Source of the DNA: a virus
Taxonomy: Duplodnaviria; Heunggongvirae; Uroviricota; Caudoviricetes
DNA length: 7,580 nucleotides
Reading direction: 5' to 3' (one strand)
Virus record (IMG/VR): IMGVR_UViG_2671180631_000001
The notes below the pieces were generated by a model, which did not search any database, was not told the DNA's origin, and worked only from the letters and a program-made list of their open reading frames with translations. The first letter of the stretch is position 1. The number at the start of each line of letters is the position of its first letter. A program made the position numbers and the translations under genes. Positions 1 through 7,580 of this stretch are shown piece after piece.

Positions 1-34
1 CTCCAATGACTAGTCTAAAAACTAGTATTAAGAC

Positions 35-54
35 TATCACTTATTTAAGTGATA
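35..54. repeat. Perfect 9-bp inverted repeat TATCACTTA-tt-TAAGTGATA (operator-like 20-bp dyad) in AT-rich sequence upstream of the endolysin
   Basis: Read directly: 35-43 tatcactta, 44-45 tt, 46-54 taagtgata; the right arm is the exact reverse complement of the left arm. The existence of the repeat is certain, its function is unknown. Confidence 0.6.
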
Positions 55-108
55 CTGGTTGTCTGGAGATTCAGGGGGCCAGTCTAGTAAGGCTGCGAGA
101 GGTGAATA

Positions 109-500
109 ATGTCGCCATCATTACGCAAGGCTGTTGCAGTTGCTATTGGTGGCGGGGCTGTTGCTATAGCATCTGTGTTAATCACTGGCCCAGGTGGTAA
201 CGATGGTCTGGAAGGTGTCAGCTACATACTATACAAAGATATCATTGGTGTATGGACTGTATGTCACGGACACACCGGAAAAGACATCATGCCTGGTAAA
301 ACGTATACCGAAGCAGAATGCAAAGCTCTCCTGAATAAAGACCTTGCCACTGTCGCCAGACAAATTAACCCGTACATCAAAGTCGATATACCGGAAACAA
401 CGCGCGGCGCTCTTTACTCGTTCGTTTACAACGTGGGCGCTGGCAATTTCAGAACATCGACGCTTCTTCGCAAAATAAACCAGGGCTATATCAAAGGCGC
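109..500 (+). CDS. SAR endolysin (phage lysozyme, P21 R-like), 3' end lost in the N-gap
   Basis: ATG at 109 in a TAATG stop/start overlap. N-terminal Gly/Ala-rich weakly hydrophobic segment ([18 protein letters not shown]) typical of a signal-arrest-release domain, followed by a T4-lysozyme-like catalytic region (GLEGVSY...[16 protein letters not shown]). The frame runs straight into the N run at 501, so about 35 C-terminal codons are missing if the full length is ~165 aa as in P21 R. Confidence 0.9.
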
Positions 501-551
501 NNNNNNNNNNNNNNNNNNNNNNNNNNNNNNNNNNNNNNNNNNNNNNNNNNN
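501..551. other. Assembly gap or masked segment (51 N)
   Basis: Uninterrupted run of n at 501-551. Flanking gene content shows the true missing length is much larger than 51 bp (see findings). Confidence 0.95.
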
Positions 552-734
552 AAATGCCCTGTGCCATCCTCAGCCGAAACCTCCAGCGCCTCCGGCATGG
601 GCAATGATGCCACCGTCGAACTCTCTCCAGTTGCTGGACGAAACGTTCTCGGTATCCGGGACGGAATCATCAGCGACCAGACAGCATTGAGAATGCTTCA
701 GGAGTACATCAGGATCCAATGCCTTGGGGGGTAG
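552..734 (+). CDS. Rz-like i-spanin, C-terminal 60 codons only (5' part lies in the gap)
   Basis: The frame starting at 552 translates to KCPVPSSAETSSASGMGNDATVELSPVAGRNVLGIRDGIISDQTALRMLQEYIRIQCLGG, ending at TAG 732-734. This matches the pattern of the lambda Rz C-terminus as I recall it (…ASGVDNAASPRLADTAERDYFTLRERLITMQKQLEGTQKYINEQCR), including the penultimate conserved Cys. Confidence 0.8.
   Translation, partial: KCPVPSSAETSSASGMGNDATVELSPVAGRNVLGIRDGIISDQTALRMLQEYIRIQCLGG
553..690 (+). CDS. Rz1-like o-spanin (proline-rich lipoprotein), 3' part, embedded in the +1 frame of Rz
   Basis: The frame starting at 553 gives NALCHPQPKPPAPPAWAMMPPSNSLQLLDETFSVSGTESSATRQH, ending at TGA 688-690. 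CxxxPKPPAPPAW matches the lambda Rz1 core (QCVKPPPPPAW). It lies wholly inside the Rz frame, the classic embedded-spanin architecture. Start codon and lipobox are in the gap. Confidence 0.8.
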   Translation, partial: NALCHPQPKPPAPPAWAMMPPSNSLQLLDETFSVSGTESSATRQH

Positions 735-822
735 CGGTAATTTTACTCATTATCCTTCAAATCAGATTCTGTTGTCAGAGGAATGGGGGAAGCTGGATTC
801 GCAAGAGCTTTTTATGGGCAGT

Positions 823-1335
823 TTAGCTAAAAAAAGGCAACACGAAGCTAAAACTACCAACATAAAGTGCTGACCAGCTAGCAGCTGAAATCAGACTCAC
901 TGTATACACTTTCACTGGATGAAGTTGCAACATTCCTGCCACCAAAGGAGCAATATAACGCAGCACGGCGATAAAGCGCGAAGTGAAAAGTATTGACACA
1001 GAGTTATTTTGCAACTGAAGGCGAACCCGTTCTATTGTATTGGAACGGCTTGATATTATACATGCAAGTTGAGGGATATGCCCAATTATTATACCAAGAT
1101 GGTAATTAACGATAGTACCGCACCATGCGCCACTCATGACCGTGATTCCAGCTTCCCATGGTGAAAGAGTCGTCTTGCTGACTGTAATTACAGTGGCCAT
1201 CATAATTGATGCTGGTGGCAATATCGCCGAAATGAGTAAAGTGGATTTTGTGAACGCTATTATAAAAAGAAGCCCCCATAGGCGATATGGATGAAGTACA
1301 AAATAGTTCATCAAAGCATTTATCCACTCCATCAA
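823..1335 (-). CDS. DedA/YqaA-like (COG1238-type) polytopic inner-membrane protein; AT-rich cargo (moron) gene
   Basis: 170-codon minus-strand ORF with stop TAA (reverse complement of 823-825). TTG at 1335 is immediately followed by ATG at 1332, with AAGGAAAG 7-10 nt upstream. The product is hydrophobic with a YqaA-like pattern (ILPPAS...SPWEAGI...GAWCGTIVNYHLGIIIG...). Sampled 60-nt blocks are about 35-45% GC against about 55% in the phage structural genes. Family assignment is from recalled similarity, not a search. Confidence 0.6.
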   Translation of the reverse strand: MMEWINALMNYFVLHPYRLWGLLFIIAFTKSTLLISAILPPASIMMATVITVSKTTLSPWEAGITVMSGAWCGTIVNYHLGIIIGHIPQLACIISSRSNTIERVRLQLQNNSVSILFTSRFIAVLRYIAPLVAGMLQLHPVKVYTVSLISAASWSALYVGSFSFVLPFFS

Positions 1336-1529
1336 TGTCTTTCCTTCTGTGAATTTTTCTTTGCTATTTAACCGTGATACGACTTAATTTAGGCTTAAAC
1401 ACCTTACATTTACAAGGTACTCCTGTGGGGGGCCCTGCCACGGAGCGTCGCAGGAGTGAGTGATGAGGAAGAATTAAAGCAACCTATTGTGACAGGCAGC
1501 GATAACAGTAAATCACAGGAAGCATAATC

Positions 1530-2294
1530 ATGGCAAAACCGGACTGGGAGGCCATCGAATCGGCATACCGGGCCGGAGTCCTTAGCCTCCGTGATATAGG
1601 CGAGAAATACGGCGTTACAGAAGGGGCTATCAGGAAGAGGGCCAAAAAGCTTGGTTGGGCACGCAGTGGCGGTACGCAGGTTTGCAAAAATGGTACGCAA
1701 AAAAGGAAAGTGCGTACCAGCAGAAAGCCTGCCATTACTGGCCTTACACAAAAAAGTACGCAACTAAAAACAGAATCTACACCGGATACGAAACCGATAC
1801 GCGGAATGCGTACCGATCCCCCGACTAACCCATTCCAACCCGGTAACCAGCAGGCATTAAAACACGGTGGTTATGCCCGTCGCCTTCTGCTCAAAGATGA
1901 GGTGATAGAGGACGCTAAAGCGTTGACGCTCGAGGACGAATTATTTCGCCTTCGTGCTAACAACCTTGTCGCTGCAGAGAATATTGGTCGGTGGTTGGTG
2001 TCGCTGGAAGATGCTAATGGGGACCAGGAAAGGAAGATGCTGATTGAAAATATCAGCGCCGCCGAGAAAGCAATGATGCGCAATACAGTTCGTATTGAGT
2101 CCATCGTTGGCACGCTTGCGACGGTAGGAAAAATATTTGCTGATACAGCCTACCGCAAGGCCGCCACTGATAAGGTGTCTCTGGAGGCTGATCGTCTTCG
2201 CCGTGATGCAGGTATTGATGATGGCAATGGAGAGCGTGACCTCAATGACTTCTACTCTGACATCCAAACCGACGCTGAATCCGGCTTTACGTAG
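1530..2294 (+). CDS. Terminase small subunit (TerS) with N-terminal helix-turn-helix
   Basis: ATG at 1530 with AGGA 9 nt upstream; 254 codons; stop TAG 2292-2294. N-terminal HTH-like segment (SLRDIGEKYGVTEGAIRKRAKKLGW) followed by a basic/Thr-rich linker. Lies immediately upstream of the large terminase subunit. Confidence 0.8.
   Translation: MAKPDWEAIESAYRAGVLSLRDIGEKYGVTEGAIRKRAKKLGWARSGGTQVCKNGTQKRKVRTSRKPAITGLTQKSTQLKTESTPDTKPIRGMRTDPPTNPFQPGNQQALKHGGYARRLLLKDEVIEDAKALTLEDELFRLRANNLVAAENIGRWLVSLEDANGDQERKMLIENISAAEKAMMRNTVRIESIVGTLATVGKIFADTAYRKAATDKVSLEADRLRRDAGIDDGNGERDLNDFYSDIQTDAESGFT
1671..1814. repeat. Cluster of five GGTACGCA / TGCGTACC copies with flanking A-tracts inside terS (candidate pac or TerS recognition site)
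   Basis: GGTACGCA at 1671-1678 and 1692-1699; reverse complement TGCGTACC at 1711-1718 and 1807-1814; GTACGCA at 1756-1762. A5-6 tracts at 1686-1690, 1699-1704, 1750-1755 and 1766-1770. Copies in both orientations argue for a DNA-level rather than peptide-level constraint. Confidence 0.5.
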
Positions 2295-3648
2295 TTTCTG
2301 GACTATGCGGGCACGTAACAAAGTGCTTTATGGTGGTCGGTCATCGTCAAAATCATGGGATGCCGCTGGCATTGCCATATTTCTGTCGAATAAATACACC
2401 CTGCGTTTTTGTTGTGCCCGTCAGATCCAGAATAAAATCGAAGAGTCGGTGTATACCCTGCTCAAAATTCAGATAGACAGGTTTGGTCTGCGGCACCGTT
2501 TCCGTATTCTGAACAACAAAATCATTAACCGGGTTACTGGCTCGGAATTTGTTTTTTATGGATTATGGCGCAACATCGAAGAAATTAAGTCACTGGAGGG
2601 GATCGATGTGTTGTGGCTGGAAGAAGCCCACGCACTGACGGAATACCAGTGGAAAATTCTGGAGCCAACGATCCGTAAAGAGGGTTCGGAATGCTGGTTC
2701 ATATTCAACCCCGGACTTGTTACTGATTTCGTCTGGCGCAACTTCGTTGTTGATCCGCCCGAAGGCACTCTCATCCGCAAAATTAACTATGACGAAAATC
2801 CGTTTCTGTCTGACACCATGCTTAAGGTTATCGACGCGGCGCGACGCCGTGATCCGGATGGTTTTAAACATGTGTATGAGGGCGTTCCGGAGTCTGATGA
2901 TGATGCGGCAATCATCAAACTGTCTTGGATAGAAGCCGCAGTGGATGCGCACAAAACGTTAAATTTCGAACCCAGTGGAAGAAAGCGTATTGGCTTTGAC
3001 GTGGCTGACAGTGGTACAGATAAGTGCGCTAACGTTTACCGTCACGGATCCGTTGTTTTCTGGGCCGACGAATGGAAGGCCAAAGAAGATGAATTACTGA
3101 AGAGCTGCCAGCGTACTTATCAGGCGGCGCTGGAGCGTGAAGCAGATATTGTTTACGACTCTATCGGTGTTGGTGCGTCTGCCGGTGCTAAATTCTCTGA
3201 AATTAACGCTGACCGGAAGAGCGAGAACGCATACGCGCGACGTGTGAATTACCAGAGGTTTAACGCCGGTGCTGGTGTGCATGAGCCAGATGACGAGTAC
3301 AACGGCATCCCCAACAAAGACTTTTTCGCAAATCTTAAGGCTCAGGCATGGTGGCTGGTGGCTGACCGTTTCAGAAATACGTTTAACGCCATTAACAACG
3401 GAGAACAGTATCCTGTGGATGAGCTGATCAGCATAGATTCTCGTTGTCCGTTGCTTGAAAAGCTGAAACTGGAACTGACAACACCTCATCGTGATTTCGA
3501 CCGTAACGGACGTGTGATGGTCGAAAGTAAAAAAGACCTCGCAAAACGCGAGATACCGTCACCAAACGTTGCTGATGCATTCATTATGGCCTTCGCGCCA
3601 ATCGATACATCGCTGGATATCTGGGAACAGCTGGGGAGACAGGCCTGA
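2245..3648 (+). CDS. Terminase large subunit (TerL), PBSX-type ATPase plus nuclease
   Basis: Open frame from 2137 to TGA 3646-3648. Walker A-like YGGRSSSKS, Walker B-like IDVLWLEEAH, and C-terminal nuclease acidic motifs (FDVADSG, IVYDSIG, NVADAFIMA). The start is ambiguous: ATG 2245 (GGAGAG 10 nt upstream, overlaps the terS 3' end) is chosen here; alternatives are ATG 2218/2221/2227 or ATG 2305 (11 nt after the terS stop, no clear SD). Confidence 0.9.
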   Translation: MTSTLTSKPTLNPALRSFWTMRARNKVLYGGRSSSKSWDAAGIAIFLSNKYTLRFCCARQIQNKIEESVYTLLKIQIDRFGLRHRFRILNNKIINRVTGSEFVFYGLWRNIEEIKSLEGIDVLWLEEAHALTEYQWKILEPTIRKEGSECWFIFNPGLVTDFVWRNFVVDPPEGTLIRKINYDENPFLSDTMLKVIDAARRRDPDGFKHVYEGVPESDDDAAIIKLSWIEAAVDAHKTLNFEPSGRKRIGFDVADSGTDKCANVYRHGSVVFWADEWKAKEDELLKSCQRTYQAALEREADIVYDSIGVGASAGAKFSEINADRKSENAYARRVNYQRFNAGAGVHEPDDEYNGIPNKDFFANLKAQAWWLVADRFRNTFNAINNGEQYPVDELISIDSRCPLLEKLKLELTTPHRDFDRNGRVMVESKKDLAKREIPSPNVADAFIMAFAPIDTSLDIWEQLGRQA

Positions 3649-5114
3649 TGGCACGAAACAAACAAGCCCTGCGGCGAACTGTGCAGGCCACAGCTGATGG
3701 TTATGAGAATTTTATTGCCCGCGTAGGGATGCAGACACCTAACCAGCACTCAGCATCCACCTACCGGGCTAATTTCACCAGTCGTAACCGCATGCTGGTG
3801 GAATGGTCCTATCGTTCATCCTAGATCATCGGCGAAGCAGTCGATGCTATCCCGGATGATATGACCCGCAAAGGCATTCGCATCACTTCGGAAATTGATG
3901 CAAAAGATCGTGGCATTCTCGAATCACAACTGGATGAGTTGCAAATCTGGGATGCGCTGAATGACGTGCTGAAATGGTCGCGCCTCTACGGCGGCGCGGT
4001 GGGTTTCATCATGATTGAGGGGTAGGCACCAATGACCCCGCTGCGACCCGAAACCATCGGTAAGGGCAAGTTTAAGGGGATTCTCCCGCTCGACCGCTGG
4101 ATGGTCGACCCGGCACTGACCCGCCGCATTAAAGATATGGGGCCGGACCTGGGTAAACCTGAGTTTTACGATGTGGTGACCACAGCAACGGGAATTCCTG
4201 CCTGGCGCATTCATCACAGTCGCCTGATTCGCTTTGATGGCGTCACGTTGCCATTTCAGCAGAAGATGACCGAGAACGAATGGGGAATGTCGGTTGTAGA
4301 GCGTATCTGGGATCGTCTTACCGCGTTCGACAGCGCTACTGTCGGCGCGGCGCAGCTGGTCTACAAGGCGCATTTGCGTACCTACAGCGTGGAGAAGCTA
4401 CGCGAGCTTATCGCACTTGGTGGTCCTGCGTATGAAGCGTTGCTGAAGAATATCGACCTGATTCGACAGTTCCAGAGTAATGAAGGCATGACGCTCATGG
4501 ACTCGCGGGATAAGTTTGAAACCCATCAGTACAGCTTCAGTGGTCTGGATGACATCCTTTCGCAGTTTGTAGAACAGATTAGTGGCGCTGTTGGTATCCC
4601 ACTGGTGCGGTTGTTCGGACAGTCCCCGAAAGGATTTTCTACCGGTGATGCAGACCTTGCCAACTATTACGATCGCATCAGTTCGTTGCAGGAGAGGCGT
4701 TTACGTCTTCCGGTGCGGCGGATACTGGACATCATGCATCGTTCGGAACTTGGCAAGCCGCTGCCGGACGATTTCACGTTTGAGTTTAACCCGCTCTGGC
4801 AAATGTCTGATGTCGATCGCTCAACGGTGGCGTTAAACACCACCAACGCAATCAGTACGGCGCTGGGTGATGGTCTGATGACACTGAAAGCCGCTATGAC
4901 TGATTTGCGAGAAAATTCTGACGTAACCGGCATCGGGGCATCCATTACCGACGAGGACATCGAGAATGCCGAAGATGAAGCGCCGCCCGGCATCGGCGAA
5001 CCTGATGACGAACCGCAGGAGCCGTCAGGCGGAAATCCGGTATCGAACCAGCCTACGCAGGATAGCGAGGGCGGTCGGAGACATCGTAAATGGTCGCTAC
5101 GATGGTTCAAATGA
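3648..5114 (+). pseudogene. Portal protein gene interrupted by two in-frame TAG codons (3822-3824 and 4023-4025); longest intact segment is 4032-5114
   Basis: ATG 3648 overlaps the TerL stop (TGATG). One frame runs 489 codons to TGA 5112-5114 except for TAG at codons 59 and 126. The translation across both stops reads as one protein (…NRMLVEWSYRSS*IIGEAVDAIPDDMTRKGIRI…GGAVGFIMIEG*APMTPLRPETIGKGKFKGILPLDRWMVDP…), with an acidic C-terminal tail typical of portals. Confidence 0.8.
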
Positions 5115-5748
5115 CAGTATCACGGAAATTATTGCGGCGCTGGAGCGTTACAGTGAAATCATCACCCCCTGGGCGACAAAGGTCGCGGAAAACTTTACTG
5201 CGGACCTAACCCGGCAGAACGAGAAAGTTTGGCGGCAACACAGCAAGAACATCAGTCGCGAGCTCCGCAATCTTGTGGAAAGCGCTCCTGTGGGCCAGGT
5301 GATGCAATCCATCATCGCCGAACAGGTCAAGTACATCAAATCTCTGCCTCTCGAGGCCGCAGACAGGGTGTACGACATCCAGAACAAAGCGATAGAGGCT
5401 GTTGTCACCGGTGGTCGGGCGGAGCAGTTTGCTAAAGAGATTGCATCTACCGGCGATGTTGCTAAGTCTAGGGCCGATCTGATTGCCCGAACGGAACTGG
5501 GAAGAGCAACGGGCGCGCTGGATATGGCCCGAGCGATAGCTATTGGCTCGGATGGTTATATTTGGCGTACAGCCGATGATGGCGATGTCCGAGATTCCCA
5601 CGATCACATGAAAGGTAAATTCGTCCGCTGGGATTCACCTCCAACTTTGGACGGCATGACCGGCCACGCGGGCGAGCTGCCAAACTGCCGCTGCTATAAA
5701 GAGATCGTGTTTGTTCGCGTTCCATTCGCAATGAAAAGGGCAGCATAA
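4966..5748 (+). CDS. Head morphogenesis protein, Mu F / SPP1 gp7-like minor head protein
   Basis: ATG 4966 with GAGGA 8 nt upstream; 260 codons; stop TAA 5746-5748. Conserved Mu-F-type motif YIWRTADDGDVRDSHDHMKGKFVRWDSPP. The 5' end overlaps the portal 3' end by 149 nt in another frame. Confidence 0.85.
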   Translation: MPKMKRRPASANLMTNRRSRQAEIRYRTSLRRIARAVGDIVNGRYDGSNDSITEIIAALERYSEIITPWATKVAENFTADLTRQNEKVWRQHSKNISRELRNLVESAPVGQVMQSIIAEQVKYIKSLPLEAADRVYDIQNKAIEAVVTGGRAEQFAKEIASTGDVAKSRADLIARTELGRATGALDMARAIAIGSDGYIWRTADDGDVRDSHDHMKGKFVRWDSPPTLDGMTGHAGELPNCRCYKEIVFVRVPFAMKRAA

Positions 5749-5751
5749 CCC

Positions 5752-6972
5752 ATGAAATACTTTTTTGAGACCAGGCTCGGGGAAACCCGATACCGCCTGG
5801 CTGACGGCTCGTTGCTGTGCAAAGACGTGCCGATAGGACGAACAGGTAAGCAGCTCTATGGTGCTGATGACCTGCCAAAACTGAAACCCGATAAGTTCGG
5901 TGAAATAGTCGTCACGCGTTCTCCTGAGCAGGTATTCCATCCGGCCACGCTTGCCTCATTCGAAGGGATGAGCATCACGATCCTGCATCCTGAAGATGAA
6001 AACGGGAATGTGCGGCTGGTAAATCCCGAGAACTGGAAAGAGCTTGCTGTCGGGCACCTCCAGAATGTCCGGCGCGGGACGGGTGAGCAGTCTGATTTGA
6101 TGCTGGCTGACCTTATCGTCAAAGACGAAAGCGCCATTCAGCTTATCGAAGATGGCCTGCGCGAAGTGTCGTGCGGCTATGACGCGGAGTACGAGCAGAC
6201 CGAGCCAGGTAAAGCCGAGCAGGTCGATATTACCGGAAACCATGTGGCTCTTGTCCCTAAAGGCAGAGCCGGAAATCGTTGTGCAATTGGAGACAGAGAC
6301 ACAATGGCAAATCAAAAGAAAAACTGGTGGAACCGCATGCGTGCGGCCATCAAGACAGGAGATGCCGACACCATGAACGAACTGGTGGAGTCGGCTCCCG
6401 CATCGGTTACAGGAGATGAGGGGGATTTGCCGCAGGGCGTTAATCTCAACATCAACCTGTCCCCGCAGCAACCACTACCGGACAAAGCACCAGAGATGGG
6501 CGGAGATCCAACCGGCGACAGTGATGATGACCTCAAAACATTACTGAAAGCCCTGCTGGCTAAGCTGGAAAGAAATGCCACGGGCGATAACGATAATAAG
6601 CCTGACGATAATCCGACCGGTGACGGCGAGGACGATGAAGAGGAAACCACGATTACTGGTGACTCAGCCTGGCGTGCCGAAGTTATCGTTCCGGGTATCG
6701 ATCTGAGCCGTAAGATGAAACCGACCGCGTTCAAACGCGAGGTTCTGGCTTCTGCTGACAAAACGCTGGTTCGCCAGATAGTCGGTGATGCGGATATCCG
6801 CAAATTACCGAAACAATCGGTCGACATGGCGTTTAATGCCGTGTCTGAGGTTGCCAAAGGGCGAAACACCCGCGCCACCACCGGCGATGCACAGCGCCTA
6901 AACATGGGCATGACCAGTATCGCTTCCCTGAACAAACAAAACGCTGAATTCTGGGCAAACCGTAAAGGGTAA
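5752..6972 (+). CDS. Head scaffolding / prohead-maturation-like protein (conserved N-terminal domain, possibly DUF2213-type, plus acidic low-complexity C-terminal half)
   Basis: ATG 5752, 3 nt after the previous stop; 406 codons; stop TAA 6970-6972. N-terminal about 180 aa globular, with HP...GH...SCGYDAEYE...GNHVALVPKGRAGNRCAIGD. C-terminal half is D/E/G/T-rich with repeated TGD motifs, typical of scaffolding proteins. Position between the Mu-F-like gene and the downstream head genes fits. Family name is from memory. Confidence 0.65.
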   Translation: MKYFFETRLGETRYRLADGSLLCKDVPIGRTGKQLYGADDLPKLKPDKFGEIVVTRSPEQVFHPATLASFEGMSITILHPEDENGNVRLVNPENWKELAVGHLQNVRRGTGEQSDLMLADLIVKDESAIQLIEDGLREVSCGYDAEYEQTEPGKAEQVDITGNHVALVPKGRAGNRCAIGDRDTMANQKKNWWNRMRAAIKTGDADTMNELVESAPASVTGDEGDLPQGVNLNINLSPQQPLPDKAPEMGGDPTGDSDDDLKTLLKALLAKLERNATGDNDNKPDDNPTGDGEDDEEETTITGDSAWRAEVIVPGIDLSRKMKPTAFKREVLASADKTLVRQIVGDADIRKLPKQSVDMAFNAVSEVAKGRNTRATTGDAQRLNMGMTSIASLNKQNAEFWANRKG

Positions 6973-6975
6973 AAA

Positions 6976-7482
6976 ATGAATAATGTATTTCTGTACCGGA
7001 TGCCTGTTGGCATTGCCGGGGCTGTCTCTCGCCCGCAGGACTTAACCGTCGAACCGGTGGTCCTTAAATCCGATAACGCCTTCGCTGCCTATGGCCTGGC
7101 TGGTAAATACGATGATGACGGTTTTTTCGTGCCGCTGGCAGATGGTGATACCGCAGACAAGGTGAAGGGGATCTACGTGCGCCCTTATCCGACCACGTCG
7201 CAGCCGGACATGGTTCGCCAGGTGGGAACAGGCAAGAACTTCCCGGGCGACGCCATGAAGCGTGGCTACGTGACCGTTAATCTCGGTTCTGATTTTGATG
7301 CCAGCACTATCAAAAAAGGCGATCCGGTATACGTTGTCGTCTCCACTGATGAATCCATCAAAGTGCCGCTGGGTGGATTCATGTCCACGTCAGTCAGTGG
7401 CAAAAACGTGGTGCTGACCAACGCTGAATTCACAGGTGCCGGTGATGCTGACGGCAATGCAGAAATTTCCTGGAAGATTTAA
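6976..7482 (+). CDS. Head-module protein of unknown function (possible capsid accessory or decoration protein)
   Basis: ATG 6976 with AAGGG 7 nt upstream, 3 nt after the previous stop; 168 codons; stop TAA 7480-7482. Same strand and tight spacing as the morphogenesis operon. No motif recognised with confidence. Confidence 0.55.
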   Translation: MNNVFLYRMPVGIAGAVSRPQDLTVEPVVLKSDNAFAAYGLAGKYDDDGFFVPLADGDTADKVKGIYVRPYPTTSQPDMVRQVGTGKNFPGDAMKRGYVTVNLGSDFDASTIKKGDPVYVVVSTDESIKVPLGGFMSTSVSGKNVVLTNAEFTGAGDADGNAEISWKI

Positions 7483-7497
7483 GGAACAGACGAATGA

Positions 7498-7520
7498 GGT
7501 GATGCTGCCAACTTACTGAT
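7498..7520 (+). repeat. IS1 left terminal inverted repeat (IRL)
   Basis: GGTGATGCTGCCAACTTACTGAT read at 7498-7520, matching the IS1 terminus as I recall it. Confidence 0.85.
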
Positions 7521-7552
7521 TTAGTGTATGATGGTGTTTTTGAGGTGCTCCA

Positions 7553-7580
7553 GTGGCTTCTGTTTCTATCAGCTGTCCCT
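7553..7580 (+). CDS. insA: IS1 InsA (transposition regulator), 5' partial, truncated by the window end
   Basis: GTG 7553 followed by GCT TCT GTT TCT ATC AGC TGT CCC, giving (M)ASVSISCP, the known InsA N-terminus. Confidence 0.85.

Follow-up and report, generated by a model that had tools for sequence, protein, structure and literature searches.

Organization of the lysis region

The window, by which we mean the whole stretch of 7,580 nucleotides that was analysed, contains the lysis genes of a lambdoid prophage followed by terminase, portal and head genes. It is bounded by IS2 on one side and by IS1 on the other. The phage-derived features discussed below are the following.

87–109, plus strand: 3′ remnant of a class II (S21-type) holin gene, consisting of the last 2 nt of codon 65, codons 66–71 (KAARGE) and the TAA stop codon
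87–91, plus strand: GTAAG, right-hand copy of a 5-bp target-site duplication attributed to IS2
109–500, plus strand: SAR endolysin gene (rrrD/R21-like; RefSeq 'lysozyme RrrD'), with its last 106 nt hidden by the N-run
501–551, no strand: run of 51 N, standing for 390 real bases as judged by mapping onto sequences L006, L007 and L010
552–734, plus strand: 3′ portion of Rz (i-spanin), inside which the Rz1 (o-spanin) frame runs to 690, based on open reading frames
3648–5114: portal gene (DUF1073/Phage_portal_3), with amber stops at 3822–3824 and 4023–4025

The break between foreign and native sequence is at 86/87. Window 87–108 corresponds to the final 22 nt of a holin gene of the S21 type, and the remnant is 100% identical to the 3′ ends of the intact holin genes of E. 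coli CFSAN029787 and VL40. In intact relatives, the gene encodes a 71-aa 'class II holin family protein' ending in ...FKIREDKRKAARGE and matching Pfam PF04971 'Bacteriophage P21 holin S' (E = 2.6e-35). KAARGE, which the original prediction had likened to the tail of an S21-type pinholin, is indeed the true C-terminus of this protein. The frame ending at TAA 107–109 overlaps the endolysin ATG at 109–111 and contains further stop codons at 11–13, 23–25, 29–31 and 50–52; the original prediction had located the first of these correctly but misplaced the other three, at 20–22, 26–28 and 44–46. Its statement that window 1–108 holds no holin ORF was borne out.

The endolysin gene retains its native ribosome-binding site, GAGGTG, at 99–104. 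Read from the translation, residues 8–27 form a weakly hydrophobic, Gly/Ala-rich SAR-like N-terminal segment and the catalytic motif E-X8-D-X5-T is present, while the full 165-aa product of Shigella sonnei sequence L006 matches PF00959 (E = 1.1e-43). The 390 bases behind the N-run have a G+C content of 51% and cover the 3′ end of the endolysin gene as well as the initial ~290 nt of the gene for the Rz spanin. The possibility that the N-run marks a true deletion joining R to Rz1 was rejected, because the identical chromosomes carry 390 ordinary bases at this position and L006, L007 and L010 have intact genes for R (165 aa) and Rz (156 aa). The 193-aa 'ORF' at window 109–690 is an artefact of the N-run. 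The Rz product of L006 matches PF03245 (E = 9.9e-30), and in VL40 the gene is annotated as 'lysis protein'. Between Rz and the small terminase gene, a minus-strand gene at window 823–1335 encodes a 170-aa DedA/VTT-domain membrane protein; it resembles a moron and also occurs in the intact VL40 prophage.

The arrangement is that of the phage 21 S21/R21/Rz-Rz1 cassette, as found in the essD-rrrD-rzpD type of E. coli DLP12, with the gene order holin-endolysin-spanin and a TAATG stop/start overlap. Likeness to the S21 pinholin extends to the PF04971 match, the tail ...RKAARGE and a pair of Met codons (MxxM) at the N-terminus, and likeness to R21 to the Gly/Ala-rich N-terminal SAR-like segment and the E-X8-D-X5-T motif of the endolysin. 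In contrast to the S21 cassette, the holin gene discussed here is split by IS2 after codon 66, a 28-residue tail replaces AARGE and the holin and endolysin genes are separated by 1.3 kb.

Sequence upstream of the holin remnant

IS2 together with its promoter and operator has been characterised for decades. By comparison with the published sequence of the left inverted repeat (IRL) and promoter of IS2 (PMC3219604; PMC3299598), window 1–86 is almost certainly the reverse complement of the first 86 bp of this IS3-family element. The features assigned to it are as follows.

1–86, minus strand: the 86 bp at the left end of IS2, numbered so that IS2 nt n = window 87−n; included are the left inverted repeat (42 bp), the site of the OrfA repressor, the weak promoter of the extended −10 type and the 5′ UTR of orfA
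1–30, minus strand: orfA mRNA 5′ leader, with two ACTAGT (SpeI) sites; the orfA ATG is placed at IS2 nt 92
31–39, minus strand: P_IRL, weak native extended −10 promoter, TGATAGTCT, IS2 nt 48–56 (PMC3299598; PMC3219604; reverse complement checked)
35–54, no strand: perfect 9-bp dyad, IS2 nt 33–52; the published numbering (PMC3299598) matches the window bases exactly
41–47, minus strand: TAAATAA, site where OrfA (InsA) docks in its role as repressor, IS2 nt 40–46 (PMC3299598; reverse complement checked)
45–86, minus strand: IS2 IRL, 42 bp, TAGACTGGCCCCCTGAATCTCCAGACAACCAGTATCACTTAA, aligned with the 41-bp right inverted repeat (IRR) of the L006 element

The G+C content of window 1–58 is 31%, compared with ~50% in the remainder of the window. 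The orfA and orfB genes of IS2 point to the left, leading out of the window and against the direction of the lysis genes, with the orfA ATG (IS2 nt 92–94) lying 6–8 nt to the left of window base 1 and the complement of its Shine-Dalgarno sequence, GGAG, at window 1–4. As the window starts inside the element, only the last 86 bp of the IS are visible in it, and the following description of the IS body is drawn from identical sequences elsewhere.

The full element of L006 is 1,331 bp long and 99.7% identical, with 4 mismatches and no gaps, to the IS2 of E. coli 042, where the reference element is annotated in RefSeq as 'IS3-like element IS2 family transposase'. The same length of 1,331 bp was found in L003, L004, L006, L007, L008 and L010. 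Aligned in L006, the terminal repeats are imperfect, with a 42-bp IRL ending TA-3′ and a 41-bp IRR ending CA-3′, as in the published element, whose repeats are 42 and 41 bp long (PMC3299598), and the termini TAGACTGG... and TGGATTTG... agree with those reported (PMC3299598; PMC3219604). The 121-aa orfA product, starting at IS2 nt 92, contains a PF01527 domain, the 301-aa orfB product contains a PF00665 rve domain, and an A6G window for −1 frameshifting is located at IS2 nt 409. In its 42/41-bp repeats, 5-bp target duplication, orfA/orfB genes with A6G window, TAAATAA site and TGATAGTCT promoter, the element is the same as the IS2 of E. coli and Shigella, and it agrees with IS2 in every structural feature tested. 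The ORFs of the element and its termini are intact. Another copy of IS2, that of E. coli 042, is likewise flanked on each side by a 5-bp target duplication (GTGTA). Relative to laboratory IS2, one base inside the IRL differs, reading CCAGTATCAC here and CCAATATCAC in the published oligonucleotides (PMC3219604); apart from this base, the sole difference from the known IS2 left end is the site of insertion.

When window 1–108 was used as a query against 5,426 complete E. coli genomes, the 86 bases were found at 20,770 places in 4,678 of them, on chromosomes and plasmids alike; per genome, the median was 3 places and the highest number 41. Presence at thousands of genomic places is the behaviour of a mobile element and not of a phage regulatory region. 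The match in E. coli 042, for example, lies inside a porin pseudogene, beside and on the opposite strand of an IS2 transposase gene whose start is 6 nt past the end of the match.

The dyad, the OrfA site and the repeats

All sequence features named in the original prediction, namely ACTAGT at 9–14 and 21–26, ACTATC at 33–38, the perfect 9-bp dyad at 35–54 and the AT-rich stretch, were recovered at exactly these positions. The dyad, TATCACTTA-tt-TAAGTGATA, has 9-bp arms and a 2-bp spacer, and no dyad of this kind with up to 2 mismatches arose in 200 shuffles. ACTAGT at 9–14 and 21–26 are the only two copies in the window, where mononucleotide shuffles of the entire window give an expected mean of 1.7. 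Taken together, these features are far from chance, yet they are not specific to this locus, because the same 86 bases recur at 20,770 E. coli places.

According to the map of the IS2 left end by Lewis and co-workers (PMC3299598), the IRL occupies nt 1–42, nt 39–48 are protected in footprints and the weak extended −10 promoter P_IRL opens with TGAT at nt 48–51 (PMC3299598; PMC3219604). This map fits the window base for base, with exact matches to the OrfA operator and the promoter just inside the IRL, at window 41–47 and 31–39, respectively. The inner end of the IRL forms the outer arm of the dyad, TAAATAA lies at the centre, and the inner arm overlaps the extended −10 promoter at its TG. Going by the literature on IS2, the dyad would thus cover TAAATAA and the inner end of the left repeat, a portion of the domain bound by the transposase, and the 14-kDa OrfA protein would be expected to bind TAAATAA and repress the adjacent weak promoter. 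P_IRL points leftwards, away from the endolysin gene, and would transcribe orfA and orfB in this direction. The dyad had originally been taken for the binding site of a dimeric regulator or an insertion junction. Both ideas came close: it lies at the inner edge of the IRL and contains a published binding site of the OrfA repressor and transposase (PMC3299598), but the junction itself is at 86/87 and not at the dyad.

Three imperfect 12-bp tandem units, TCCAATGACTAG, TCTAAAAACTAG and TATTAAGACTAT, span window 2–37, and a 16-nt imperfect palindrome is centred on the ACTAGT at 21–26. Both lie within the IS2 promoter and leader, and a described function for either was not found in the IS2 literature examined. 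A SpeI site downstream of the left-end promoter has been reported (PMC3219604), as has a maximum of intrinsic DNA curvature near IS2 nt 60 (PMC3299598).

A split holin gene and its uninterrupted counterpart

In the S. sonnei chromosomes identical to the window, codons 1–66 of the 71 holin codons, encoding both transmembrane segments, are found directly beyond the 1,331-bp IS2. The holin body is thus displaced 1.3 kb upstream and not replaced. GTAAG is present at both ends of IS2 in seven independent sequences (L003, L004, L006, L007, L008, L009 and L010), and there is little room for doubt, judging from these alignments, that IS2 inserted between the first and second base of holin codon 65, duplicating GTAAG. 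Read in the same direction as the lysis genes, the locus consists of holin codons 1–66, IS2 right repeat, orfB, orfA, promoter and OrfA operator, left repeat, GTAAG, window 92–108 and endolysin, with 92–108 forming the final 17 nt of the holin gene and running into its stop codon. Both orfB and orfA are antisense to the lysis genes. Two IMG/VR contigs, read in the orientation of the window, illustrate the same junctions: the holin body ends in ...AAGCGTAAG, the IS2 right repeat starts with TGGATTTGCCCC, the 1,331 bp end in GGGGGCCAGTCTA and GTAAGGCTGCGAGAGGTGAATAATG leads into the endolysin gene.

The holin ORF at this locus is consequently not complete, being interrupted by IS2 after codon 66 of 71, with the native tail KAARGE 1,331 bp away from the body. 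In L004, the upstream ORF reads MYQMEKISTGIAYG...LYFKIREDKRK and continues with 28 IS-encoded residues, so that the last five residues of the holin, AARGE, are lost and a tail of 28 mostly basic residues (WICPYISRHLLSLNPLQARCRRYSRGER) is gained. The resulting re-tailed ORF is 91 or 94 aa long and matches PF04971 at profile positions 1–62/64 (E = 1.7e-34). L003 (around 4700, minus strand) differs from L004 in an extra 1-nt deletion in the A6 run at holin codons 5–6, which shifts the frame of the gene start. It also diverges from the window after Rz, where a lambda Nu1-like terminase is found. The IS2::holin allele therefore exists in at least two downstream contexts. L003 was rejected as the locus of the window, since it shares the junction but diverges after Rz and carries the extra holin frameshift; the true matches are L006, L007 and L010.

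E. coli VL40 carries the same prophage segment as one contiguous stretch in which the holin-endolysin junction is uninterrupted. The gene order is Q-like gene, four tRNAs, holin, rrrD, Rz, DedA-like gene, terminases, portal and head genes. Identity to the prophage of the window is 99.5–99.9%, with 2 base differences in 87–500 and 9 in 552–7497. VL40 and the window resemble a before-and-after pair, as close to one as sequence data give.

Distribution of the junction

The exact junction is found in two IMG/VR viral contigs. The 94-aa fusion protein is publicly listed as 'lysis protein S [Shigella sonnei]', and the 91-aa form is encoded on 234 contigs of up to 5.04 Mb, 18 of them longer than 1 Mb and almost all annotated as S. 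sonnei. Six near-complete S. sonnei chromosomes share one layout: holin fusion, IS2 orfB/orfA on the opposite strand, 165-aa endolysin, 156-aa Rz, DedA-like gene, terminases, three-piece portal, head genes and IS1. Compared with S. sonnei L006, L007 and L010, the window shows 0 mismatches from base 1 to 7580, the N-run excepted.

None of the 5,426 complete E. coli genomes had a place covering at least 80% of window 45–175, and the exact junction was likewise absent from the species-representative genome contigs scanned. We take this collection to contain one genome per species, with Shigella presumably folded into E. coli as in the GTDB taxonomy. There was no pair of filled and empty sites within E. 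coli proper; the filled site occurred only in sequences annotated as S. sonnei. Where phages and E. coli prophages match the lysis region, the match starts at window base 86–87 and a holin lies directly upstream.

Overall, comparison of these sequences leaves us highly confident that transposition placed a complete 1,331-bp IS2 in the 3′ end of an S21-type pinholin gene, within a lambdoid prophage of the S. sonnei lineage. Nothing contradicts this structural identification.

Decay of the prophage

The insertion in the holin gene is one of several lesions. Most S. sonnei loci contain an extra segment of ~1.45 kb with an IS110-family transposase gene, located in L006 at 8533–9981, 19 bp before the called holin start at 10001 (blastn against L010). 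In loci with this segment, the genes of the early-right operon (cro, replication genes and QueH) are inverted relative to the lysis genes (L006 1–8500). In L010 (7379–9981), an IS3-family (IS911-like) element lies between the Q-like gene and the holin gene.

Further downstream, the portal gene differs from that of VL40 in having amber codons at two positions, codon 59 (TGG>TAG) and codon 126 (CAG>TAG), resulting in pieces of 58, 54 and 360 aa. The same split is seen in five of the six S. sonnei loci, and only the 58- and 360-aa pieces are called in L011. At window 7498–7580, an IS1 end (GGTGATGCTGCCAACTTACTGATTTAGTG...) truncates the head region just after the 'cement protein' gene, at the point from which additional head genes follow in VL40. 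Expansion of IS elements, pseudogenisation and rearrangement have been described for Shigella genomes (PMC8072062), and as in other IS-riddled defective Shigella prophages, IS2, IS1, IS110-family, IS911-like and IS600-like elements interrupt or rearrange a single lambdoid prophage that also carries point-mutation pseudogenes. The prophage discussed here does not differ from these in kind and is one more instance.

Probable consequences for lysis

At the level of the holin, the insertion would remove AARGE and add 28 IS-encoded residues. It would further uncouple the holin from the endolysin by a 1.3-kb antisense IS2 and remove translational coupling through TAATG. The endolysin keeps its own ribosome-binding site, and its transcription would probably depend on read-through across the IS from the phage late promoter. 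A scan of the holin-IS2-endolysin stretch, blind to extended −10 promoters and rho-dependent sites, found no promoter-like site, including none directed outward to the endolysin, and detected no intrinsic terminator above chance inside the IS; the only two terminator-like hits were at chance level and both in the holin body. The outward −35 element of IS2 is located at the right end and not the left (PMC9330008), and published outward promoter activity of the left end was not found, the IS2 assays in PMC12095673 covering the right end only. With no outward promoter or terminator found and the −35 element at the right end, endolysin expression would rest on read-through from the late promoter.

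The original prediction had described a SAR endolysin without a holin that could not be triggered normally. The first part is overstated, given the 91/94-aa re-tailed ORF, and the re-tailed holin might still be functional. As to the second part, SAR endolysins can release spontaneously without a holin, although later and less synchronously (PMC9239132), so that a later and less sharp release is possible and even a dead holin would not make an expressed endolysin inert. In L010, the gene for a Q-like antiterminator is still upstream in normal orientation, and some expression of the lysis genes is therefore possible. Nevertheless, based on the sequence, the lysis cassette is most likely a silent, decaying remnant, considering the other IS insertions around the holin gene, the rearranged early region and the two amber codons in the portal gene.

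An explanation compatible with the structural one is that the insertion has been retained in S. sonnei because the lysis cassette was disarmed or re-timed, either through uncoupling or through the new basic pinholin tail, thereby protecting the host or repurposing R and Rz. It would fit the findings that each of the six S. sonnei loci examined has the allele, that it is present on 234 contigs, and that R and Rz are intact while the portal gene is broken. However, in a clonal, IS-rich lineage drift suffices for fixation (PMC8072062), and the neighbouring IS110-family, IS911-like, IS600-like and IS1 insertions together with the portal ambers speak for general decay, which makes selected retention improbable. 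We consider it slightly less probable again that the seemingly fixed insertion would act as a selected 'safety catch', disarming or re-timing a still-expressible lysis module that is tolerated or exploited by the host.

Alternative explanations of the junction

According to the original prediction, the body of the holin gene was deleted and foreign AT-rich DNA with the operator of a phage or host regulator took its place, leaving a holin-less SAR endolysin. The window contains no holin body and its dyad does overlap a published protein-binding site (PMC3299598). The 3′ holin remnant and the foreign origin of the adjacent sequence are also correct. Loss of the body is not, as codons 1–66 lie beyond a complete IS2 with a 5-bp target duplication, which is the signature of simple insertion with no loss of target DNA, and the proteins binding the dyad are the IS2-encoded OrfA or transposase and not a phage regulator (PMC3299598). 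A search upstream of the window for a holin or a mobile-element end had been proposed at the same time; in the identical S. sonnei sequences both are present, IS2 first and then codons 1–66, an outcome that the original prediction had itself named as counting against it. Replacement of the holin body is therefore very unlikely, and insertion of IS2 remains the preferred explanation.

Less probable still is an assembly chimera at a repeat-bounded contig end. The window does have the appearance of a short-read draft contig, starting in IS2, ending in IS1 and containing an N-run. The same junction with matching target duplication is, however, present in independent assemblies, comprising two IMG/VR contigs and six near-complete chromosomes, and the fusion ORF is found on 234 contigs, all of which reduces a chimera to the slightest of chances.

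Finally, that window 1–108 is a conserved late promoter, qut or leader region with the holin encoded elsewhere can practically be dismissed, its position upstream of a lysis gene being all that speaks for it, whereas intact phages and prophages match only from 86–87, with a holin directly upstream, and bases 1–86 occur at thousands of non-phage loci such as the porin pseudogene beside an IS2 transposase.

Implications

IS2 and its parts are textbook material, and the allele described here is already known in that it is contained in public S. sonnei genomes. For annotation, the locus illustrates two cautions: a window that starts inside an IS makes an interrupted gene look deleted, and the strong dyads and repeats at IS ends mimic operators. 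The insertion itself carries little biological weight, since it is just another IS in a degenerate prophage of Shigella, and its junction could serve as a marker of the S. sonnei lineage.
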